Of a stretch of 64,000 bases of DNA, positions 3,935 to 56,230 are shown piece after piece (the first letter of the stretch is position 1; each line of letters starts with the position of its first letter). The stretch lies in the NCBI GenBank assembly GCA_017621525.1, contig JAGASX010000014.1:13232-77231 (forward strand), read 5' to 3'. The notes beneath the pieces were generated by a model. That model was not told the origin of the DNA. It saw only the letters and a list, made by a program, of their open reading frames with translations, and ran no database searches. The position numbers and the translations under genes were made by a program. Source of the stretch: Clostridia bacterium. GTDB taxonomy: Bacteria > Bacillota > Clostridia > Christensenellales > UBA1242.

Positions 3935-4246
3935 TGTCGCACCTGCGTTGACAACCAGCCCCCTCGTCGAGGGGGCTGGCAACCTGTATGGGTTGACAGG
4001 GGGACAATTAAGTGAAAAGTGAAGAGTGAAAAGTGAAAAGGTAAGACGCCCCGCTTCGCGCCAAAAGCGACCTGCGCCCGCTTTTGACGCTCCGCTTATA
4101 AGGTTGGATATTATAAAAAACCTATCGAGGAGGCAGACACTCAATTTAGAGTGGGGGTGTTCAAATAAGTGTAAAGTGAAAAGTGAAAAGGTAAGCCTGC
4201 CCCGCTTCGCACGCTCGGCGACAACTCCGCCATCGCTTGGAGACGA
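3935..4246 (+). repeat. Mosaic of GC-rich modules (D fragment, E1, B1, C1, B1', C-like)
   Basis: D fragment GTGTCGCACCTGCGTTGAC 3935-3953; E1 3957-4005; purine heptads B1 4006-4045 and B1' 4167-4195; C1 with stem CAAAAGCG (4062-4069) / CGCTTTTG (4079-4086). Each has homologues at 28.2, 39.4, 42.3 and 55.5 kb. Confidence 0.9.
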
Positions 4247-4382
4247 CGTGTTCTATAATTCAAATAATGATTCTGAAATAAATATTTCAAAAATCTACGT
4301 CCCAACTGCAAGTGTTAGTGCGTATAAAAGTGCCGACGGTTGGACTGATTATTCAACTTATATCACCGGCTATTCATTTTAA
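4247..4382 (+). pseudogene. Orphan 3' fragment of a BspA-type leucine-rich-repeat surface protein gene
   Basis: VFYNSNNDSEINISKIYVPTASVSAYKSADGWTDYSTYITGYSF* aligns with the C-terminus of the intact LRR protein (MFYNCSSSLVIYVPTASVSAYKAATYWKNYSRKIQGKSF*, ending at 41579). Upstream sequence is repeat mosaic with no start or signal peptide. Confidence 0.7.
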
Positions 4383-5015: not shown

Positions 5016-8000
5016 ATGGCAAACACTAAAACAAAATTCAAAGGCGCACTTAAAGCAACAGCCATTGGCTTTGCACTTGTACTTTCCAGTGCATTTTTCC
5101 CTGCAAATGCAATTGCAAACGCAATTGATTATAAGGAACCAGAATCTGCAAGAATCAACACCAGCAGAATTGCAGTTGACGGAAACAACCAATCTTTCGC
5201 AGTAAAGAGAGGCGCAACTGTTTCAATTCCAGAAGGTGAATACCTTTATAAAAAGGCAGACGCTTCACAAGGCACTCATATCATTGGCGGAGCGAAAGCG
5301 GACAACATCACAGAAAGTGAAGTTATTGTAACTTACAAAGCAACCGGCGCAAGAGTTGCTGTTTCTGCTGAGGGCACATTTGTTGCAAGCAAAGTGGGCA
5401 CTTATGTTATCACATACCGCGTTGTTGATAACAAAATTGAATACACATATGAACAACTTGTAAAAGTTGAAGCAAGCGAGGCATCATTCGAGTTTGAAGC
5501 AAACGACAAAAATGTGATTCCAAGCGTTTATGATGTTACCCTTGCAAACGGCAAAGACGTTGTTCTTCCACTTCCAACAGTTGTTGATGAAAATGGAGAA
5601 ACAATTCTTTCAGCAGAAGACGGGGAATACTATGTTCTTGGTAAAGACACTTCTGGCATTACAGGCGACAAAGATGTTTATGTAAACATCAGCCTTGTAA
5701 ATGGTGGCGAAAGTGTTGCCCTTCAATATCGCACAAACTACGCTGGCGAAAAAGAATATTATATTTCTGGCGAGGACCTTTCAGAACTTGACGATGAGGA
5801 CAAGGCCGTTCTTGAAGGACAAGATATTAAAATTTACTATTCTTTCTATCAAAAAAGCACAGATGTGTTTATTGCTTCAACAAGCAAAACATTTACTGTT
5901 AAGAAAAATTACTACTATAGCGACGCTGATAAAGATACAACAGGTTACAGCCTTGTTACTTCTTTGGTTGGAACAAGACCAGACAGCGCAATTGTTGGCG
6001 TAGAAAAAACTCTTCCAACAGTTTCTGCTACAACAGGTGAGAAAAACACTCCTGCAAGCGAAAATGTTGAAGTTTACTATGACCTTGTAGTATACAAAGC
6101 AAACGACAACGGCAACTATAACGATAACAACGACGTAACAGAAGATGTTATCACCAAAGATGGTGCATTTAAGGCAATTGAAGAGGGCTCTTACAAATTT
6201 GTTTACAAAGTAAAAGACTTCTATGGCAACGCTGGAAGTGAATCTTCAACAACATTTACAATCAAAAATGTTAAAGATACCATTTCTGCAACTGCATACA
6301 TTTATGATGCAAGCCAAAAAGCATATTTTGACGGCGAAAACAACCCAACTTCTTATGATGAAGAAAACAACAAGTATGACAGTGCACAAAATCTTTTGAA
6401 AACTCAAACAGTAAACCGCAATATTGTTATGTATGCAATTGGCGGAACTGACAACATGGTTGCAAAAGAGGATATTGCACTTAAACGCGTTATTAAAGAT
6501 AACAGCGGTATTGAAAGATTTGTAATCGACCAAGAAGAATACCACGCATACAACCTTATTTTCGCACCAGGACTTCCAACCGGCGCGGGCAGTGGCTCTG
6601 TTCTTCAACAAATTGTTTCAGACAACTACCAAATCTTCAAAGCAATGACTATGAAAGGTCTTGATATTGAGAACGATGAGGTTATCGCGCAATATCTTAA
6701 AGAAAACGGGTACCTTATTGTAACAACCCAGTTCAATAAGGCCCTTGACGGAAGCGAAATTGTTACAGGTCTTACCGAAGATGACGAAACCGCACTTATT
6801 CAAATGAGAGATGCAGGTTACGCATATATCGCACCAAAAACAGTAGGATATGAATTTAAGGAACAAACTTACACATTCTACTATCACGCAAACGACAATC
6901 AAAACAGCAATAAAGAGGCAACTCTTTACCAAACTGTAAAACTTACAGACGGTTTCACAGATGCAACCATTCCAACACTTACTTTTGCAACAGACTTGCA
7001 ATCTGCATATCTTCCAACCGAAAGTTTTGAATTTAAAGTTGCAACTGCAACCGACACAATCGATTCAAGACTTGAAACTGTAACTGCTTACAGATACCTT
7101 GGCTCTGATAGAAAAGGACTTCCAGCAAGCGAAAAGGCTGGCACAACTTCAAAACTTTCATACGTTCTTCAAAATGCAAACAAAAACCTTATGGAAGACA
7201 CAAGTAAGTGGTATGCCAAAGAGGGCAAAATTGAAAGCGAAGGATGGTTTATCGACAACGAGGCAACAACATACACCGTAGACCTTGCAAATAAACCAGA
7301 TGGTGCAAACTATGTTGAAATTTTGGCTTATGCAATTGACGACTACGGCAATGTTGGTTTCTTCAACAAGGTAATCAGAATTGCTGACGCAACAGACGCA
7401 GGCGCACCTGTTCTTTACAAAGTTATCAATGCTCCAGATGCAACAGAATATACCGCTCCAAGCGAAATTGCACTTCCAACACTTTACTTCAATGATGACA
7501 ATGTAAACTATATGCACGCAAAAGTAAATGTGTACAAACTTATCAAAAATGCTGACGGCGTTGTAACAGGAAAAACTCTTGTTCAAAACTCTAACATGAA
7601 AACAAGTTACGACACCTATGAAGACTATTTCAAAGTTGATGCAGGCGTATTTAAGGCATCTGTTGAGGGCGATTATCAAGTGGCAGTAACAGTTGTTGAC
7701 AGTGGCAACCACAGCGTAACATCTTACTTTGCTTATAAAGTTGTTGAGGGCGAAAGCACAGAAGAACCAAAAATCAACAACATCACTTCTGACCCAATTG
7801 AACTTCTTCCAGGTGAGGCTCACTACCTTGTTGCGCCAACATTCACAATGGCTAAAAACAGCAAATACGGATATATTGGCGTTGAAGAACAAGATGACGC
7901 GTTTACTTCAACTTACTACAACGTATCAGCAGTTTCTGCAACAAGCAGTGATTATGAACTTGATGAATCATACTTCATTGGAAACAGCGAAGGAACATAT

Positions 8001-11554: not shown

Positions 11555-12379
11555 ATGAAATATAAAGTCATAAATGATACTATAGAAGTTTATTCAAAAG
11601 AGGAATTTAACCCGCAACATATTTTGGAATGTGGTCAGGTTTTTTGTTTTCATAAAGAGGGCGAAAAATATCTGTTATATCCACAAAACCAATACGCAGA
11701 AATTTGGGAAGAGAGTGAAAAATATGTTATTTCCACCAAAAATCCACAATATTTTGTAAAATATTTGGCACTTAACCAAAATTATCAGCAAATTAAAGAA
11801 GAGTTGTCCAAATTTGAAATTATGCAAAATCCATTAAAATTCGGCTATGGCATAAGAATTTTAAAACAAAACCTTTTTGAAACGCTTATTTCTTTTATCA
11901 TTTCTGCAAACAACAACATAAAAAGAATTACCCTTATCTTAAACAATCTTCGCAGAGAATTGGGCGAAAGAAATGAAGAAATTTATTCATTCCCATCACA
12001 TGATGCACTAAAAAATTGCGACAAAGAATTTTTTAAACGCATGGGTGCAGGTTATCGGGCGGACTATTTGGTAAAGGTGTGCAAACAAATTACGCCTGAA
12101 ATTTTGCAAGAGTATGACCAACTGCCAACCCCTCAATTGCGGAACAAACTTATTGAACTTGCAGGTGTTGGCCCCAAAGTTGCTGACTGCGTTTTGCTGT
12201 TTGGTTATAATCGAGGGGACGTCTTTCCTGTGGACACATGGATTGAAAAAATGTACAATCAATATTTCCCGATAGAGTGCAATCGAGAGAAAATAAGAAA
12301 CAATCTCGTTGCCATGTTTGGCAATCTTTCAGGTCAGGCTCAACAATATCTGTTTTACTATCAACGCTCGGGGAAATAG
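11555..12379 (+). CDS. ogg: 8-oxoguanine DNA glycosylase / HhH-GPD family (OGG1 type)
   Basis: HhH-GPD signature LIELAGVGPKVADCVLLFGYNRGDVFPVDTWI. N-terminal OGG-like domain (ECGQVFCF). Confidence 0.85.
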   Translation: MKYKVINDTIEVYSKEEFNPQHILECGQVFCFHKEGEKYLLYPQNQYAEIWEESEKYVISTKNPQYFVKYLALNQNYQQIKEELSKFEIMQNPLKFGYGIRILKQNLFETLISFIISANNNIKRITLILNNLRRELGERNEEIYSFPSHDALKNCDKEFFKRMGAGYRADYLVKVCKQITPEILQEYDQLPTPQLRNKLIELAGVGPKVADCVLLFGYNRGDVFPVDTWIEKMYNQYFPIECNREKIRNNLVAMFGNLSGQAQQYLFYYQRSGK

Positions 12380-28096: not shown

Positions 28097-28140
28097 AAAA
28101 CATAAAACGCTGCAAAATCTGCGGTGTTTTTTTGTTTCCC

Positions 28141-28560
28141 AAGCACCCCCGCGGACTTGCAACCCGCGGGGACGCTTTTTTACGTCGCACCCGCGTTGAC
28201 CTTCGACCAACGCAGACGCTTCCGCCCCGCTCCGCTAAATCAGTTTGAATTAAACAAGCCCCCTCGTTGAGGGGGCTGTCGGCAAAGCCGACTGGGGGAG
28301 TTGAATTAAGTGAAAAGTTAATAGTGAAAAGTGAAAAGGTGTGCCCCGCTCCGCACGCTTGGCGAGTGGTGCCCGCCTTGCACGCTTCGCTAAATAAGAT
28401 TTATTAAACGCCCGTTGTTAGTCATTCGCATACCGCACCGCACTAAAAGCGACAATAATCCTCCTCGCCGAAGGGCTGTCAACCCGCATGGTTTGACTGT
28501 GGGAGTTTACACTTTTGTCGCCTTTCAGACAACTCCCTCCGCCCGGCGTTCAACATAGAT
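28141..28560 (+). repeat. Mosaic of GC-rich modules downstream of rplS (F1, D2, E2, B2, C-like and further GC-rich hairpins)
   Basis: F1 stem CCCCGCGG (28147-28154), loop ACTTGCAAC, stem CCGCGGGG (28164-28171) plus T-run. D2 stem 28191-28198 / 28208-28215. E2 28256-28300. B2 28301-28343. Confidence 0.9.
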
Positions 28561-38889: not shown

Positions 38890-38928
38890 AACGACCTCCC
38901 TTATAGAGGGAGAATACCACTTTATTTC

Positions 38929-39282: not shown

Positions 39283-39347
39283 AAGCCTTCCCTTGGGGGA
39301 AGGTGGCTCGAAGAGCCGGAAGAGGGATAATACGCCCTCTTTTTTTG
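39283..39347 (+). repeat. Type-A module copy A5 whose trailer doubles as an intrinsic terminator stem
   Basis: AAGCCTTCCCTTGGGGGAAGGTG-GCTCGAAGAGC-CGGAAGAGGG, then AGAGGG-ataatacg-CCCTCT plus T7 (39320-39347). Confidence 0.9.
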
Positions 39348-39600
39348 TCGCACCTGCGTTGACCTTGCGACCAACGCAGACGCTCCCGCCCCGCCAGCCC
39401 GCTCCGCTTATAAGGTTGAAATAAAAAAATACAAGTGTTTGTCGACAAATTTGATTATGTAGTTGAATTAAGTAAAAAGTGATAAGTGAAAAAGGTAACT
39501 CCGCCCCGCTTCGCACCAAAAGCGACCTACGCCCGCTTTTGACGCTCCGCTAAATAGGCGTCGCACGCTTGGCGACCAACGTCCGCCTCGCCCGCCCCAA
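39348..39600 (+). repeat. Mosaic D3 - B3 - C3 - GC-rich tail
   Basis: D3 has stem CTGCGTTG (39354-39361) / CAACGCAG (39372-39379), with GTCGCA/TGCGAC interleaved. B3 39463-39499. C3 stem 39517-39524 / 39534-39541. Confidence 0.9.
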
Positions 39601-39785: not shown

Positions 39786-41579
39786 ATGAAACTTAAAACC
39801 AAATTATGTTCAACAATTGTTATGTTCTGCCTCACCATTGTTACACTTATGGTGGGTGTTTGGGCTGTAAAAAGTGCAAACGTAAACATTGGCGGTACAC
39901 TTTCCTTTGTCGCACAAGGTATAGAGGCAACAATTTCCAAAGGCACCATGTCAAACGGCACTTGGCAAACCGCCTCCCACGCAACAACCAAACTTAAACA
40001 AATTGAAATCACAAAAGCAGACACAACCTCAACCCTTTCAAGTAAATTCTCTTCTTGGTCTGGCATAAACCTCAACTTCAATGAAAATGGGGACGATATA
40101 ACAATTTCTTTCTCAATCACAAACAACTCTGATACAAACTCCATTGCGGTGGACGTTTCAACCAGTTACGCATCAGCAACCAACTGCACAATCGCAATAG
40201 ACACCTCTTCCGCAAGCATAGAGCCTAATAAAACCCAAAACTTCACCCTCACTATGAAAATAACCGATAAAGACATCAACGCATCTATGACCAACTTCAC
40301 CGTAATTTTCAATATGCAACTTGTTCAACCTGCACCACCTGTTGATGCCGAAGATGTTTCCTACCTTACTTTCTCTTATGACGACACAACAATGACTGCA
40401 AGTGTAACTGACTGTGATACATCTATTGCGGAAGCGATAATTCCGGAAAGAGTATTATATAGTGATGCAGTTTATGAAACAGTAAGCATAGGAATCCAAG
40501 CCTTCTATAAATGCACAGGCCTTACCTCAATCACAATCCCGGATAGTGTTACAAGTATAGGAAATAATGCCTTCCTAGATTGCACAGGCCTTACAAGTAT
40601 AAGCGTAGACAGTGAAAATAGTGTATATGACAGCAGAAACAATTGCAATGCAATTATTGAAACGGCAACTAATACTCTTATTCAAGGCTGTAAAAATTCA
40701 ACAATTCCCGACAGTGTAACAAGTATAGGTGAGAGTGCCTTTAATGATTGCACAGGTCTTACCTCAATCACAATACCAAATAGTGTAACAAGTATAGGAG
40801 ATTATGCCTTCACTAGATGCACAGGTCTTACCTCAATTACTATCCCCGATAGCGTAACAAGTATAGGAAATAATGCCTTCTTGTTTTGCGCCGGACTTGC
40901 AAGTGTAACAATTGGCAATGGCGTAACAAGTATGGGTAATGCTGCTTTCCAAGAGTGCTCACAGCTTACTTCAATCACAATACCAAACAGTGTAATAAGT
41001 ATAGGAATTAATGCCTTCTCTGGTTGCACGGGGCTTACAAGCATAAGTGTAGATAGTGGGAATAGTGTATATGACAGCAGAAATAATTGCAATGCAATTA
41101 TAGAAACGTCAACTAATACTCTTATCAAAGGTTCTAACAATTCAACAATTCCTAATACTGTAACAAGTATAGGAGATTCTGCCTTCGATGGTTGCACAGG
41201 GCTTACCTCAATCACAATTCCAGATAGCGTAACAAGTATAGGCGAGTCTGCCTTCCGTGATTGCACAGGACTTACCTCAATTACAATCCCAGATAGCGTA
41301 ACAAGTATAGGAGGTTATGCCTTCTCTGGTTGCACAGGACTTACAAATGTAACAATAGGCAGTGGTGTAACAAGTATAGGAGGTTATGCCTTCTCTGGTT
41401 GCACAAACCTTGCCGAAGTGAATGTAAAAGCAACATCTGTGCCAAATGGGGGGAATAATATGTTCTATAATTGCTCTTCATCGCTTGTGATATATGTACC
41501 AACAGCAAGTGTAAGTGCCTACAAAGCGGCAACATATTGGAAAAATTATTCAAGAAAAATTCAAGGTAAAAGTTTTTAA
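39786..41579 (+). CDS. BspA-type leucine-rich-repeat surface protein with an N-terminal SipW-style signal peptide and TasA-like module
   Basis: N-terminus MKLKTKLCSTIVMFCLTIVTLMVGVWAVKSANVNIGGTLSFVAQ parallels the two small proteins at 56898 and 57622. About 14 repeats of TSITIPDSVTSIG..AF..CTGL. C-terminus IYVPTASVSAYKAA.YWKNY. Confidence 0.88.
   Translation: MKLKTKLCSTIVMFCLTIVTLMVGVWAVKSANVNIGGTLSFVAQGIEATISKGTMSNGTWQTASHATTKLKQIEITKADTTSTLSSKFSSWSGINLNFNENGDDITISFSITNNSDTNSIAVDVSTSYASATNCTIAIDTSSASIEPNKTQNFTLTMKITDKDINASMTNFTVIFNMQLVQPAPPVDAEDVSYLTFSYDDTTMTASVTDCDTSIAEAIIPERVLYSDAVYETVSIGIQAFYKCTGLTSITIPDSVTSIGNNAFLDCTGLTSISVDSENSVYDSRNNCNAIIETATNTLIQGCKNSTIPDSVTSIGESAFNDCTGLTSITIPNSVTSIGDYAFTRCTGLTSITIPDSVTSIGNNAFLFCAGLASVTIGNGVTSMGNAAFQECSQLTSITIPNSVISIGINAFSGCTGLTSISVDSGNSVYDSRNNCNAIIETSTNTLIKGSNNSTIPNTVTSIGDSAFDGCTGLTSITIPDSVTSIGESAFRDCTGLTSITIPDSVTSIGGYAFSGCTGLTNVTIGSGVTSIGGYAFSGCTNLAEVNVKATSVPNGGNNMFYNCSSSLVIYVPTASVSAYKAATYWKNYSRKIQGKSF
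40470..41420 (+). repeat. Intragenic tandem LRR-coding repeats (about 69-bp / 23-codon units, plus one roughly 140-bp duplication)
   Basis: Recurrent ACAAGTATAGG...GCCTTC...TGCACAGG(C/T)CTTACCTCAATCACAAT(A/C)CC units. SISVDSENSVYDSRNNCNAIIETATNTLIQG (about 40.60 kb) is duplicated as SISVDSGNSVYDSRNNCNAIIETSTNTLIKG (about 41.04 kb). Confidence 0.9.
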
Positions 41580-41583
41580 ATAA

Positions 41584-41611
41584 AAGCGGGTTTTTAATAA
41601 CCTGCTTTTTT
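41584..41611 (+). terminator. Intrinsic terminator of the LRR gene
   Basis: AGCGGGT-ttttaataa-ACCTGCT (one mismatch) plus T6. Confidence 0.7.
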
Positions 41612-41616
41612 GATTG

Positions 41617-41787
41617 TGAGCCTCTTCCGCCAACCTGGGGAGGCACCAAACAAGTTTAGCGCGGGCACGGCAGAGATAAACTCGTGCCTAACCGCTACTT
41701 GTTCGGTTCCCCGTCCCAATCTCCCTCCCTCATAAGGACGCACTTACGTGCGATTGACTTGCACCTTCCCCGGTTTCGGGGAAGGCA
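41617..41787 (-). repeat. Type-A module copy A13 (inverted) with a roughly 125-nt insertion (module H2) at the hairpin-2 position
   Basis: On the minus strand it reads AAGCCTTCCCCGAAACCGGGGAAGGTG-[insert]-GCGGAAGAGGCTCA. Insert 41636-41730 is homologous to 900-1000 (CGCGGGCACG...CTAACCGCTA...TCGGTT.CCC..CCCAAT..CCCT). Confidence 0.85.
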
Positions 41788-41845: not shown

Positions 41846-42124
41846 ATGTTCAAGGTCGGGCATCTCGGGTTGATAGAGTTTTACCAACTGCCTCGTGTGT
41901 ATTACGCTCCACCAAAGCCACCTTATGGCACACCAAAAGGTCCTTTTAATGATGCTCCCGTCAGGGCCTGACATGGTTCAAGGGTTTTGATTGCATAAGA
42001 CCTTGATTTCATCACGCAAAGCACACGCACATTTTTGACAAAACTAAACCGCGCCGAGCATTCAACCCCACATATAGCGGATTGTGGGTACAGAGCACCG
42101 CTAACTCTCCGTTTAGCCCGATAT
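41846..42124 (-). ncRNA. ffs: Signal recognition particle RNA, long Bacillus-type (scRNA) with Alu domain
   Basis: The minus strand reads ...GGAGAGTTAGCGGTGCTCTGTACCCACAATCCGCT... (Alu domain, compare B. subtilis GGGGAGGTAGCGGTGCCCTGTACCTGCAATCCGCT). It also reads GAACCATGTCAGGCCCTGACGGGAGCATCATTAA (domain IV, compare GAACCATGTCAGGTCCGGAAGGAAGCAGCATTAA). 5' TCGGGC pairs with 3' GCCCGA. Promoter is TTGCAA-17-TATCAT just upstream. Confidence 0.88.
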
Positions 42125-42295: not shown

Positions 42296-42568
42296 AAGCC
42301 TTCCCTTGGGGGAAGGTGTCGCCTTGGCGACGGAAGAGGGACAACTTTAAGTGAAGAGTGAAAAGTGAAGAGTGAAAAGGTGAGCACGCTCCGCTAAACA
42401 AGTTAAGCCTTCCCCTTTGGCCGTAGGAAGGTGCCCGCAGGGCGGAAGAGGCTCATACAAAAGCCTTCCCTTGGGGGAAGGTGTCGCCTTGGCGACGGAA
42501 GAGGGACAACTTCAAGTGAAGAGTGAAAAGTGAAAAGGTAAGTCCGTTGGACTTGCGGAAGAGGCTCA
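42296..42568 (+). repeat. Array A2-B4-(C-like)-A3-A4-B5 of GC-rich modules
   Basis: A2 42296-42340 and A4 42461-42505 are identical (hairpin 2 TCGCC-tt-GGCGA). A3 42405-42455 is identical to A7 at 55579. B4 42341-42384. B5 42506-42542. The 9-nt CGGAAGAGG is duplicated at 42496-42504 and 42556-42564. Confidence 0.95.
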
Positions 42569-43424: not shown

Positions 43425-43669
43425 ACTTAAAAAAGCGTTGATGAAAGACAACACCTTTTCTGTTTATCCGCACAGAGAATTGCCGGTTGGTGTAAGGCAA
43501 TGGGAGGGCGAAAAAGGTTATCACTTTCGGAGTTGCATTTGCGAAGTTAAGTAGCAATTGCCGGGACTTCCCGTAACAGAAGGGGTGGGTGATTGCCCGC
43601 TGAAAAAAGACTGCAAGTGGTATATAAAGCCGTAATTTAGGGTTCTTGTATCTTAAATTGCGGTTTTTT
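43425..43669 (+). promoter_or_regulatory. T-box riboswitch leader, Ile specifier (AUC)
   Basis: GA/K-turn start GTTGATGAAAG, AGAGA box (CACAGAGAA), distal-loop GGTGTAA, candidate specifier ATC-A at about 43518-43521, UGGU acceptor-pairing element in AAGTGGTAT. Terminator CCGTAATTTAGG...CTTAAATTGCGG plus T6 (43629-43669). Upstream of ileS. Confidence 0.72.
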
Positions 43670-52728: not shown

Positions 52729-52757
52729 AAAAAAACTCCCACTCGGGAGTTTTTTTA
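52729..52757. terminator. Bidirectional intrinsic terminator
   Basis: CTCCC-actc-GGGAG flanked by A7/T7. Confidence 0.8.
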
Positions 52758-53465
52758 TTCCACAATCACCACATCGCCGTCGCGAGAATAACTTTCACCA
52801 AGATAGTCAAGTTCTTGCATCGCGTAAGAAGAAAGGTGTATTTTTACTAAATTACAATCGGGGTACTCTTTCGCAAGTCCCACAACCTCACCAACACAAA
52901 GGTGCTTTTGCGTTACTTCTACGCCCGCGGTGTCAATAAAACAAACCTTTGCTTTCTTTAAAATTTTATGCAAGTTGTTGCACATGGCGGTGTCGCCGGT
53001 AAAGCCAACCTTATTTCCGCCCTCATCAATCAAAAAGCCGTAACTGTCAAGGCTTCCATGCAACATTTTAAAACATTTAAAAGAATATTTGCCCAATTTC
53101 AATTTTTTGCCATTTTCACATTCAATAAAGGTTACAAATTCTTCAAGATGAGGCAAAAGATGTGAAAGTTCAAACAACCTAAACATGGCTTGAACTCGCT
53201 GTGCACAACCCTTTGGCGCAAGTATTGTTAATTTGCGTTTAGGAAAGTGCCTGAAAATATAGTCCAAAACAATATGCAAATCGGCAAAGTGGTCGCTGTG
53301 GAAGTGGGATATAACAATTGTGCTTATTTTGTCAAAACCATAATCTAAATACAAGGTTTTAAAAGAGCCCTGCGGTACGTCAAACAAAATTTCATCATTT
53401 ATAATATAACTTGTAGAAAGTTCCCGCGTCCAAGTGCAACCAGAGCCTACAATTTGAATTTTCAT
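52755..53465 (-). CDS. MBL-fold metallo-hydrolase (RNase Z/BN-like)
   Basis: ISHFHSDHFADL (HxHxDH), later TGDT and KIHLS motifs. Confidence 0.8.
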   Translation of the reverse strand: MKIQIVGSGCTWTRELSTSYIINDEILFDVPQGSFKTLYLDYGFDKISTIVISHFHSDHFADLHIVLDYIFRHFPKRKLTILAPKGCAQRVQAMFRLFELSHLLPHLEEFVTFIECENGKKLKLGKYSFKCFKMLHGSLDSYGFLIDEGGNKVGFTGDTAMCNNLHKILKKAKVCFIDTAGVEVTQKHLCVGEVVGLAKEYPDCNLVKIHLSSYAMQELDYLGESYSRDGDVVIVE

Positions 53466-55041: not shown

Positions 55042-55402
55042 TGCCATATTAAACAACTTTAAGGATATCGCTGGCGACAACCTTAAAAAAATTTCACCTC
55101 ATAAATACCTTGTTACCTTTCCTATTATGCTTGTAGAAAACTTTGACAGCCTGCCTGTGTACCTTGTCAACCTTGATGAAGAGGCATATTTGGCAGACTA
55201 CGGCAAAACGCTGGAAAGCATGGAAGTTGCCTTTGATGACCTTAAACCACAACTGAAAGAATATATATCAAATAAACTTAAATTTCTTGGCGTTGAATTT
55301 GATGGACAATCAATGATGATGCCAATAAAAGAAAACAATGAAAGACTTTGCCTATCACTTTTTGTTATGGCAATCTCATTCTTGCAAACTGTTTGCTTAT
55401 AA
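55031..55402 (+). CDS. Hypothetical 123-aa protein, translationally coupled to the 488-aa gene (DUF1828-like pattern suspected)
   Basis: GGGAGGAAG RBS inside the upstream gene, with an 11-nt overlap. YLVTFPIMLVENFDSLPVYLVNLDEEAYLADYGKTLESM resembles the DUF1828 layout. Confidence 0.6.
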   Translation: MKFDAILNNFKDIAGDNLKKISPHKYLVTFPIMLVENFDSLPVYLVNLDEEAYLADYGKTLESMEVAFDDLKPQLKEYISNKLKFLGVEFDGQSMMMPIKENNERLCLSLFVMAISFLQTVCL

Positions 55403-55407
55403 ATAAA

Positions 55408-55560
55408 AGCACCCCTGTCGACCGCTGACCGACAGGGACGCTTTTTTTTGTGGAAGTGGGACGAAACACCGCCGACGACTTGCAACCGTCGGCGACGTTT
55501 TTTTTGTGTCGCCCGCTCGGCGACCGCTGACCGCCTCGCCCGCTCCGCTTATAAGGTTGG
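55408..55560 (+). repeat. Cluster of three GC hairpins with conserved 9-nt loops (F0, F2, h9) plus a C-module tail
   Basis: F0: CCCTGTCG (55413-55420) - ACCGCTGAC - CGACAGGG (55430-55437) plus T8. F2: CGCCGACG (55470-55477) - ACTTGCAAC - CGTCGGCG (55487-55494) plus T8. h9: GGCG (55519-55522) - ACCGCTGAC - CGCC (55532-55535). Tail CGCTCCGCTTATAAGGTTGGA as at 4088 and 39409. Confidence 0.9.
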
Positions 55561-55578: not shown

Positions 55579-55777
55579 AAGCCTTCCCCTTTGGCCGTAG
55601 GAAGGTGCCCGCAGGGCGGAAGAGGCTCAATTTTTGAAAACAAAAACAAATCAAGCCTTCCCCTTTAGCCGTAGGAAGGTGTCGCGTAGCGACGGAAGAG
55701 GCTCAATTATTTAAAACAAAAACAAATCAAGCCTTCCCCGAAACCGGGGAAGGTGCCCGAAGGGCGGAAGAGGCTCA
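55579..55777 (+). repeat. Tandem triplet of type-A modules (A7, A8, A9) with conserved 23-nt A-rich linkers
   Basis: A7 55579-55629 (hairpin 2 GCCC-gca-GGGC). A8 55653-55705 (TCGC-gta-GCGA). A9 55729-55777 (GCCC-gaa-GGGC). Linkers are ATTTTTGAAAACAAAAACAAATC and ATTATTTAAAACAAAAACAAATC. Confidence 0.97.
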
Positions 55778-55784
55778 AAAAAAC

Positions 55785-55813
55785 TTGCAATTTAATTTAG
55801 AATTATATAAAAT
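55785..55813 (+). promoter_or_regulatory. Promoter of the DUF559 gene. Geometry implies a leaderless or near-leaderless mRNA.
   Basis: TTGCAA (55785-55790), 17 nt, TAAAAT (55808-55813). The ATG at 55820 is only 6 nt downstream and has no SD. Confidence 0.5.
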
Positions 55814-55819
55814 AAAGTT

Positions 55820-56173
55820 ATGAAAACGCCGAATAAAAAACTTACGCCAAATGCTCAAATATTGCGGAAAAATATGACAAAAGAAGAAAGACATTTATGG
55901 TATGATTTTTTGTCAACTTATCCTATACAATTTAAAAGACAAAAGGTTGTAGGCAGGTATATTGCAGATTTCTTTTGCCCGAAAGCCAAAATTATAATTG
56001 AAATTGACGGCTCTCAACATTTTAGTGAAGATGGATTGCAGTATGATAAAGAGAGAACGGACTTTCTTAATAAATTTGGAATTATGGTTATAAGATTAAC
56101 AAATATTGATATAAATCAAAGGTTTAGGTCATCATGTGAATTTATTGATTTAAAAGTTAAAGAGAGGTTATGA
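55820..56173 (+). CDS. DUF559 (Vsr-like/PD-(D/E)xK fold) endonuclease-domain protein
   Basis: LTPNAQILRKNMTKEERHLWYDFL...FKRQKVVGRYIADFFCPKAKIIIEIDGSQH...DKERTDFLNKFGIMVIRLTN is the typical DUF559 layout. It is visibly more AT-rich, with TTA/ATA/AGA codons that are uncommon in neighbouring genes. Confidence 0.85.
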   Translation: MKTPNKKLTPNAQILRKNMTKEERHLWYDFLSTYPIQFKRQKVVGRYIADFFCPKAKIIIEIDGSQHFSEDGLQYDKERTDFLNKFGIMVIRLTNIDINQRFRSSCEFIDLKVKERL

Positions 56174-56230
56174 GCCTCTTTCGTCATTCGCTAACGCTCA
56201 TGCCACCTTCCCCGGTTTCGGGGAAGGCTT
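56171..56230 (-). repeat. Type-A module copy A10, inverted. It begins at the DUF559 stop codon.
   Basis: TGAGCCTCTTTCGTCATTCGCTAACGCTCATGCCACCTTCCCCGGTTTCGGGGAAGGCTT is the reverse complement of AAGCCTTCCCCGAAACCGGGGAAGGTG-[21 nt]-GAAAGAGGCTCA. Hairpin 1 is identical to A9. Confidence 0.93.

Follow-up and report, generated by a model that had tools for sequence, protein, structure and literature searches.

A strand-oriented hairpin repeat in uncultured rumen Clostridia, probably similar to REP elements, with a subset of candidate terminators

The stretch of DNA considered here, 64,000 nt of contig JAGASX010000014.1 from a Clostridia bacterium (assembly GCA_017621525.1), which is called the window in what follows, contains a series of short GC-rich hairpins that we have named H units; the H unit is a previously undescribed repeat, so far confined to a few related Clostridia of the rumen, all of them uncultured. 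A first-pass annotation, made from the letters of the window alone, had noticed in these hairpins a conserved 9-nt loop carried by unrelated GC stems, had taken several of them for terminators, and had suggested that the loop is read by a sequence-specific factor. The interpretation that we hold to be probable, if by no means secure, is that these hairpins represent a structured repeat of intergenic DNA, restricted to one lineage and fixed in its strand orientation, with a behaviour resembling that of the repetitive extragenic palindromes (REPs) and the bacterial interspersed mosaic elements (BIMEs), and that the subset flanked by an A-run and a T-run would serve as terminators.

In an alignment of 28 units the H unit measures 33-34 nt and has the form GC-AC-C-N6-G-AC-Y-NNN-R-AC-C-N6'-G-AC-GC or, in fuller notation, GC-AC-C-N6-G-A(C)-Y-NNN(N)-R-(A)C-C-N6'-G-AC-GC; expressed in lengths, GCAC-[8]-[9 or 10]-[8]-ACGC fits all the copies, and the flanks are as conserved as the loops. 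What had been described as a conserved 9-nt loop resolves into three elements: a constant bracket of tandem A·C appositions, a closing pair whose two bases covary, and a triloop (3-4 nt) that is free in sequence. The A·C apposition abutting each end of the 8-bp helix is invariant (28/28 units), while the second position of the bracket is sometimes a G-C or an A-T pair instead, and loop positions 3 and 7 form the closing pair, which is C-G in 18 units, T-A in 8 and T·G in 2. The arms are 94% Watson-Crick paired; their six variable pairs all change on both sides, their end pairs, C-G and G-C, never vary, and on the + strand the alignment has no G·U cell in the arms. In 26 units G-C is the outermost pair, in the unit at 55466-55498 and its orthologue it is A-T, and because this switch from G-C to A-T is compensated, the two outer pairs do form across the AC/AC internal loop. 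On the - strand the brackets become G·T/T·G and the whole unit reads as a continuous 15-pair helix with a triloop, so that standard pairs occupy 94.8% of the 15-pair helix on this strand and 70.2% on the + strand. The constrained parts of the unit are the helix, the brackets and the flanks, and the centre of the loop is the least constrained of all.

The covariance model built from this alignment recovers 33 H units in 272 kb, and every one of them (33/33) is on the + strand, in the sense direction of the genes. The 33 matches are confined to the window, to two sister metagenome-assembled genomes (MAGs) or to a MAG labelled Lachnospiraceae (locus L012), and none lies outside this clade; the raw divergence from the window at 4-fold sites is 8% for the sister MAG GCA_054265615.1, 33% for the sister MAG GCA_054276855.1 and 46% for the more distant L012. 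The window itself, a 38% GC chromosome segment of uncultured spore-forming Clostridia of the ruminant gut whose DNA is also contained in bovine and sheep gut metagenome runs, holds 10 units in its 64 kb. The units are located only in inter-operon spacers, are co-oriented with the flanking genes and are arranged in head-to-tail arrays. In more distant relatives (43-48% protein identity, 31-32% GC) the corresponding spacers have plain terminators and no H units, a search of Rfam over the repeat clusters gave no match at the gathering threshold or at E<=1, and blastn against plasmid and phage collections found no similar sequence.

The controls leave hardly any room for the idea that these hairpins are a chance resemblance, or a single recent clonal duplication that included the stems, whose one point of support is the small number of copies in the first-pass annotation. 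The bare motif ACYNNCNNC, proposed there as the signature, is indeed uninformative, with 203 matches in the window; the scaffold CRCC-N6-GAC-N6-CC-N6-GACG, on the other hand, matches 6 times, always on the + strand, where 100 shuffles give 0.00. The window has 16 (strand-counted) perfect GC hairpins of 8 bp whose loops measure 7-12 nt, against 1.4 in block shuffles, and H units make up 14/18 of such hairpins in 115 kb of clade DNA and 0/3 in 85 kb of other taxa. The constant framework on unrelated, perfectly complementary GC stems is a real feature; it is not a clonal duplication including the stems, since these differ and covary among copies, and the covariance model finds its 33 matches in four genomes. 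Random matches to the scaffold do occur elsewhere, with non-complementary arms: a scan of genome contigs with the T-type scaffold gave 15 matches, 14 of them random in this sense and 1 real (L012); a scan of viral contigs, which serves as a negative control, gave 94 matches, and all 80 loci checked had non-complementary arms; and in JGI metagenomes there were 26 matches, all in high-GC coding DNA and none with complementary arms.

The ten units of the window, all on the + strand and designated below by their first position, can be distributed among several types. Three are of T-type. The unit at 55409-55441, GCAC-CCCTGTCG-AC-C-GCT-G-AC-CGACAGGG-ACGC (46.6 bits with the covariance model), starts 6 nt past the stop codon at 55400-55402, has ATAAAA on its 5' side and T8 (55442-55449) on its 3' side, and has an RNA fold of -20.2 kcal/mol (z -5.5); the next, ACAC-CGCCGACG-AC-T-TGC-A-AC-CGTCGGCG-ACGT at 55466-55498, folds at -18.5 kcal/mol and its T-run extends to 55505; and the third, GCAC-CCCCGCGG-AC-T-TGC-A-AC-CCGCGGGG-ACGC at 28143-28175, folds at -22.5 kcal/mol and is followed by T6 at 28176-28181. 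Two D-type units start directly after a T-run: GTC-GCAC-CCGCGTTG-AC-C-TTC-G-AC-CAACGCAG-ACGC at 28187-28219, which has one C·A mismatch and lacks a T-run of its own, and GCAC-CTGCGTTG-AC-C-TTGC-G-AC-CAACGCAG-ACGC at 39350-39383, which has a tetraloop. The E-type is represented by GCAC-CAAAAGCG-AC-C-TAC-G-CC-CGCTTTTG-ACGC at 39513-39545, between the flanks GCTTCGC and GCTCCGC, and by GCGC-CAAAAGCG-AC-C-TGC-G-CC-CGCTTTTG-ACGC at 4058-4090, in which one position of the outer bracket is G-C. The degenerate units are two of D2-type, GCCC-GCTCGGCG-AC-C-GCT-G-AC-CGCCTCGC-CCGC at 55511-55543 (32.2 bits) and GCAC-GCTTGGCG-AC-C-AAC-G-TC-CGCCTCGC-CCGC at 39563-39595, and one of E2-type, GCAC-GCTTGGCG-AG-T-GGT-G-CC-CGCCTTGC-ACGC at 28353-28385, which has a K module on its 5' side; unit 55511 keeps 6/8 arm pairs, is followed by CGCTCCGCTTATAAGG and folds no better than its shuffles (z +0.6). 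To these can be added an interrupted D-type 5' half at 3940-4010 on the + strand, CAC-CTGCGTTG-AC, with a C5 module of ~55 nt (AACCAGCCCCCTC...GGGGGACAATT) after its G-AC. The eight hairpins first described (28147-28171, 55470-55494, 55413-55437, 55519-55535, 4062-4086, 39517-39541, 39354-39379 and 28191-28215) are all present and correspond to units of this series, with two particulars to note: that at 28191-28215 contains the C·A mismatch just mentioned, and GGCG/CGCC at 55519-55535 is the 4-bp core of the degenerate unit 55511.

The comparison of orthologues separates the parts of the unit in the same way. Over five orthologous pairs of intact units, the loop has changed at 4 of its 16 positions and the remainder of the unit at 1 of 150. 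Against the 33%-diverged MAG, units 28143 and 55466 have changed in the triloop only (TGC to TAT and TGC to TAC), with 0/60 changes at other positions. The orthologues of unit 28143 in L002 and L003 keep the same stem with the triloops TAT and TAC, and that of unit 55466 in L022 has the change from TGC to TAC as its sole difference, while the rplS terminator region, 40 nt 5' of unit 28143, is 79-83% identical between orthologues. In L163, from the 8%-diverged sister MAG, the orthologue of unit 39513 is identical and that of unit 39350 carries a C·A mismatch at the second position of the arm. The degenerate units (D2 and E2, with 6/8 arm pairs) drift at or above the neutral rate, unit 39563 differing from its L163 orthologue at 6/33 positions where the genome-wide 4-fold divergence is 8%. 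In L012 the 55409 site has the same flanks, brackets, closing pair and triloop, and three stem pairs that differ in a compensated manner.

With regard to termination, an A-run on the 5' side and T6-T8 on the 3' side are found only at units 28143, 55409 and 55466, and 7/10 of the window units lack a T-run; the description of several hairpins as T-run terminators agrees with the anatomy of these three, and the ACG(C)T-runs reported after 28147 and 55470 are also present after 55413. The folds of the three T-type units range from -18 to -22 kcal/mol (z -4 to -5.5), the covarying outer pairs bridge the 4-nt ACGC spacer before the T-run, and in L012, L022 and L151 the T-type units lie 7-29 nt after stop codons. 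Because of the A-run and T-run flanks, the stable folds and the positions after stop codons, units 28143, 55409 and 55466 are plausible intrinsic terminators. Unit 28143 is situated 3' of the intact terminator of rplS (28104-28133), which uses G·U pairs.

H units are embedded in mosaics together with GC-rich modules, P, K and C5, and with a CGCTCCGCT-TAWAAGG motif, and the composition of these mosaics changes from strain to strain. Unit 55409 is absent from its site in the sister MAG L022; the position after unit 28143 is occupied by a D-type unit in the window and by a D2-type unit in L002; and an E2 unit kept in L163 (9624-9670) has been lost in the window (39384-39400) through a 28-nt deletion between two CCCCGC repeats. 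The D-type units start directly after a T-run not only in the window (28182 and 39347) but also in L151, L163 and L002. Logan contigs obtained by a NifU look-up, which yielded no strain other than that of the window, end at the repeats. In 5/7 cases the C5 module (~55 nt), which has the form AACAAGCCCCCTC-NNN-GAGGGGGCT-(second hairpin)-GGGGGAGTT and whose terminal inverted repeats are imperfect, has entered an H unit precisely behind the 5' G-AC; copies occur in the window at 3953-4010, 28253-28305 and 28455-28510, in L022 at ~11893-11960 and in L151 at 4305-4365 and 7919-7975. The junction between D unit and C5 seen at 3940-4010 recurs in L022 and twice in L151, and at L151 7905-7990 the 3' arm CAACGCAG-ACGC resumes past the insert. 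C5 is, in other words, a nested, site-specific insertion into the hairpin loop of the H unit.

The interpretation that we prefer starts from what the comparisons show: each unit consists of an 8-bp helix, arbitrary in sequence and strictly Watson-Crick, bounded at both ends by A·C brackets, with two G-C pairs below and a covarying pair and a triloop above. Such units are gained and lost among strains, are eroded by deletions and take up nested insertions after the 5' G-AC, and the intact copies are conserved throughout apart from the triloop. On this basis the T-type units (28143, 55409 and 55466) would act on RNA, as intrinsic and possibly bidirectional terminators or as protectors of the 3' ends of the upstream genes, with the outer G-C pairs bridging the ACGC spacer as far as the U-run, and the D and E types, which have no T-run, would be non-terminating internal modules of longer repeats. 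The appearance of the same loop on different stems would result from six positions fixed by the scaffold and a few recurrent triloops, not from a factor reading the loop. A protein may recognise the folded single strand, most likely of DNA, when the units spread or are maintained; this recognition is suggested because the brackets are invariant and wobble pairs are absent, in parallel with the stem mismatch of REPs that is needed by RAYT, the REP-associated transposase.

Several observations weigh against this interpretation. Features that define REPs fail, as there is no GTAG and there are no inverse pairs of REP and iREP, 33/33 units having the same orientation; no transposase or HUH gene is found in the window or in the loci fetched; and orientation relative to transcription is confounded with orientation relative to replication in all loci. 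Unit 28143 is redundant with rplS's own terminator, an 8-bp stem placed 4 nt from the U-run and a 9-nt loop are unusual for intrinsic terminators, and the contigs of the one metatranscriptome set either stop before the H units or are absent there, giving no coverage. Furthermore, some other intergenic DNA is also ~94% conserved, so that conservation alone is not specific to the units, and, as the clade DNA covered amounts to ~150 kb, any genome-wide copy number is an extrapolation.

The rival explanations differ as to which molecule carries the constraint and what, if anything, reads it. A protein or an RNA that recognises the 9-nt loop by its sequence (ACTTGCAAC, ACCGCTGAC and related loops), whether on RNA or on single-stranded DNA, with the loop held constant and the stems free, would explain the identical loops on different stems within the window, the presence of the triloop GCT on four different stems, L012 included, and the approximately 2-fold over-representation of identical cores among the 24 independent units used for the statistics of loop identity (11 pairs against 4.9 expected, P ~0.01). 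However, those 24 units contain 17 different cores of closing pair plus triloop, L012 has loops beginning with AG, the bases at positions 3 and 7 of the loop change together as a pair, and the excess of exact 9-mer loops on different stems in the window is not significant (2 pairs against 0.65, P ~0.09). Since the changes between orthologues fall in the triloop and rarely elsewhere, which argues against a reader of loop identity, we consider such a reader very unlikely; what is read, supposing that there is a reader at all, is the strict helix together with the A·C brackets, which do not vary. More doubtful still, indeed scarcely probable, is that the units are terminators tuned by pH, in which at the mildly acidic pH of the rumen the A·C appositions would become A+·C wobbles, extend the helix to the U-run and increase termination: the brackets stand at exactly those points at which pairing would join the helix, without a break, to the outer G-C pairs and the U-run, their second position is occasionally a G-C or A-T pair and the source is the ruminant gut, but the proposal is purely inferential, the D and E units without U-run carry the same brackets, and tandem A+·C pairs are weak.

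A more serious competitor, which we nevertheless regard as unlikely, is that the element is essentially a DNA hairpin recognised in a strand-specific manner by a transposase resembling HUH/RAYT enzymes or by a mismatch-directed nuclease such as the Vsr-like DUF559 protein, with the tandem A·C brackets (G·T on the other strand) and the strict 8-bp helix as its code of recognition and with terminator activity only incidental. The lack of G·U on the + strand of the arms, in contrast to the ordinary terminator of rplS, speaks in its favour, as do the invariant brackets that give the continuous 15-bp helix of the - strand (95% against 70% standard pairs), the stems frozen between orthologues and free between paralogues, the single orientation (33/33), the turnover by presence and absence with site-specific nested insertions after G-AC, the precedent of stem mismatches required in REPs (PMC3333891) and the DUF559 genes found in the mosaics at three loci. 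Against it, the HUH or transposase gene is missing from the window and the fetched loci, DUF559 is flanked by P modules rather than H units, L022 has unit 55466 without DUF559, DUF559 occurs in another taxon that lacks such repeats, the identical copies predicted by recent copy-and-paste are not seen, every T-type stem being different, and the T-run and A-run flanks point to transcription. Orientation cannot discriminate between RNA and DNA, because the direction of the genes and the G-rich strand coincide at every locus. Three features (no wobble pairs, stems frozen among orthologues, brackets that never vary) incline the balance to DNA recognised as a folded strand, and the T-runs incline it to RNA as the carrier of the constrained structure. 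Improbable, and decidedly more so than strand-specific recognition in general, is the bolder conjecture that the tandem A·C (G·T) brackets constitute a recognition code for a strand-specific DNA enzyme, either a RAYT-like HUH protein or the multi-copy DUF559 proteins of the mosaics, whose Vsr-like character places them with the T:G-mismatch endonucleases, that spreads or processes the hairpins. If this were true, there would be in Clostridia a REP-like system based on mismatch recognition, and a bracket-reading enzyme, if it exists, would represent a new mode of recognition of folded DNA; we know of no mismatch-recognition REP-like system described in this phylum.

Other explanations were examined for particular features and set aside. 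The first-pass annotation had proposed an H-type pseudoknot at 39347-39379, and GTCGCA (39347-39352) and TGCGAC (39366-39371) are in fact complementary, but the topology is unsupported. In H-type pseudoknots the connecting loops must be long enough to span the grooves, and here the 3' strands of helix 1 (39366-39371) and helix 2 (39372-39379) abut, with 0 nt to separate them; in addition, the pairing overlaps with the outer G-C pairs, which covary and with which it would compete, the sister copy at 28185-28215 has it disrupted (TTCGAC), and it shows no covariation. A kissing loop through the palindrome UUGCAA was rejected, as orthologues carry UUACAA and the T...A is better understood as the closing pair of the triloop. 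Hairpin-templated correction as the sole cause of the perfect stems predicts a nearly neutral drift of the stems, and orthologous stems are frozen. Finally, ACC-N6-GAC taken as a bipartite site of the Type I restriction kind has 12 matches against 2.8 expected, of which 7 are H units and the others coding.

With respect to the modules that accompany the H units, the K module consists of 3-4 tandem (A)AGTGAAAAG repeats with AAAGGT at the end and is found at 4006-4042, 4163-4199, 28304-28340, 39466-39502, 42345-42381 and 42503-42539; C5, K and an E-type H unit, usually in this order, make up a recurrent composite of ~110 nt. At 42378-42395, GAGCAC-GCTCCGCTAAAC has the H scaffold (GCAC...GC-TCCGCT) minus arms and loop, and is the product of a precise deletion between the AC repeats or else a site that was never filled; the 7-nt GCTCCGC direct repeats flanking E units suggested a target-site duplication, an idea that this "empty site" matches uncleanly. 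The P modules are a second repeat family, AAGCCTTCC..GGAAGG-TG-(variable 4-6 bp hairpin with a GNA or CTTG loop)-GGAAGAGG(CTCA/GAC), located on the + strand at 38924, 39280, 39677, 42293, 42402, 42458, 55576, 55650, 55726, 59034 and 59122, and on the - strand at 41610-41650, 41762-41786 and 56170-56228. Several variants of their two hairpins reassort among the copies, with swapped stems in a constant frame, and in a DNA run the depth of P-module words is 8-12x the genome baseline.

The P modules also surround genes of DUF559 (a Vsr-like endonuclease), 73-77% identical, which occupy three different loci in three sister genomes (window 55820-56173, L151 10001-10369 and L152 408-782). Each gene has a + strand P module just 5' and an inverted P module just 3', the latter forming a hairpin with a T-run; gene and modules are absent at the window locus in L022, and a contig joint in run X1 skips 55625-56175. 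To judge from this arrangement, the DUF559 gene with its P modules looks like a small mobile gene cassette. The DUF559 homologue P0145 belongs to an unrelated host with 47% GC and no H units. A GC-rich structured segment, AATCCCGCGGGCG...CCCGCCCGCG...GCCCGTGCGGGCACCGACCCGCC, precedes the P module and DUF559 in L151 (9745-9870) and L152 (55-300), is conserved in these two sister MAGs and is duplicated in L152; the related motif CGCGGGCACG occurs in the window at 925-935, 1129-1139 and 41660-41670.

The window carries, besides, direct repeats unrelated to H units: 893-948/1097-1152, 56 nt with 98% identity, 3' of tuf; 56330-56370/56540-56580, with GTGGGGTTCCGGGGGAATCGCAACCCCCGG hairpins that have an 8-nt loop; and the AT-rich 56406-56467/56615-56676, 85% identical. 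A BspA-type leucine-rich-repeat gene (39786-41579) contains 69-nt periodic repeats and a 444-nt duplication within 40500-41473, and an apparent C-terminal fragment of leucine-rich-repeat type (4250-4382) follows a repeat cluster. A gene with the metallo-beta-lactamase fold (52755-53465, - strand), for which a precomputed Pfam match indicates anti-Pycsar Apyc1 (PF23023), is kept in all the relatives examined. Among the housekeeping functions are tuf, rplU, rplS, topA, hslUV, yqfD, a tRNA-Gly, the large signal recognition particle RNA (41856-42121, - strand) and a T-box before ileS, the T-box leader (43429-43657) scoring 69.6 bits (E = 5e-13), short of the Rfam gathering score of 93.

The interest of the H unit lies in that knowledge of REP-type elements, and of the enzymes that act on them, is extensive for Proteobacteria and scanty for Firmicutes, and here is a compact and precisely defined case, in which what is constrained (helix geometry and brackets) can be separated from what is not (loop identity). 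It also suggests that genes of an uncultured lineage of the rumen can take their terminators from repeats of a selfish or structural kind. At a practical level, the covariance model explains assembly breaks at the intergenic spacers of these genomes and guards against annotating H hairpins as small RNAs or riboswitch-like motifs.

Compared with known systems, the T-type units share with intrinsic terminators, including the bidirectional A-tract/U-tract ones, a GC hairpin with an A-run before and T6-T8 after it, close to a stop codon and co-oriented with the gene; they differ in the 9-nt loop (or triloop above an internal loop), in the 4-nt spacer bridged by a 2-bp helix, and in a scaffold sequence common to many copies, 7/10 of those in the window lacking a T-run. 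With integron attC sites, the ends of IS200/IS605 and the nonanucleotide origins of CRESS viruses, the H unit has in common the maintenance of a structure and a few unpaired bases while the helices vary, and strand-specific recognition would be a further common feature; attC sites (57-141 nt) are, however, far longer and have RYYYAAC/GTTRRRY boxes that the H unit lacks, with no integrase in the window, and in relation to CRESS origins there is neither the nonanucleotide consensus nor a Rep gene nearby. The CGTC-tagged REPs, whose families are heterogeneous in stem, loop and tail and for which a dedicated transposase is not known (PMC3733652), come nearer, as the - strand of the H unit begins with GCGTC in 27/28 units and continues with an 8-bp stem. 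These REPs have an unpaired CGTC, an 8-9 bp stem starting with A/T, a 4-5 nt loop, a CCA tail and head-to-head dimers, and are mostly from alpha-Proteobacteria (PMC3733652); in the H unit, by contrast, CGTC lies inside the helix in G·T pairs, the stem starts with C-G, GGTGC forms the tail and dimers are absent.

The closest resemblance is to REP and BIME elements (PMC3333891, PMC2817692, PMC3116915). The 33-34 nt of the H unit fall within the 20-40 nt by which REPs are defined. Both are imperfect GC-rich palindromes of 30-40 nt, intergenic and 3' of genes, with conserved unpaired or mismatched positions and flank and with stem differences that keep complementarity; both form mosaics with linker motifs, vary in copy number or presence by strain, are targets for other insertions, and have had roles in termination and in mRNA stabilisation proposed for them. 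In E. coli, TnpA-REP requires the conserved flanking tetranucleotide as well as the stem bases that are not complementary, and one REP type is distinguished from another by stem changes that are compensated (PMC3333891); REPs are also insertion targets (PMC1525189). The differences are also clear: the 5' flank of the H unit reads GCAC (+ strand) or GCGT(C) (- strand), so that the GTAG tag of REPs is absent; its copies stand head-to-tail in one orientation, whereas pairs of REP and iREP (BIME, REPIN) alternate; nearly each intact copy has its own stem, whereas REPs comprise few sequence types; its mismatches take the form of tandem A·C brackets, one at either end of the helix, and that of REPs is mid-stem; and its host is a Clostridia lineage, with no RAYT (Y1 HUH) in the window or the fetched loci. 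REPs reach ~100 or more copies per genome; the count of H units is 10 in the 64 kb of the window and 33 in ~150 kb of clade DNA, orthologues included. The H unit thus works like a REP while standing outside the described REP families, and we file it as a new variant.

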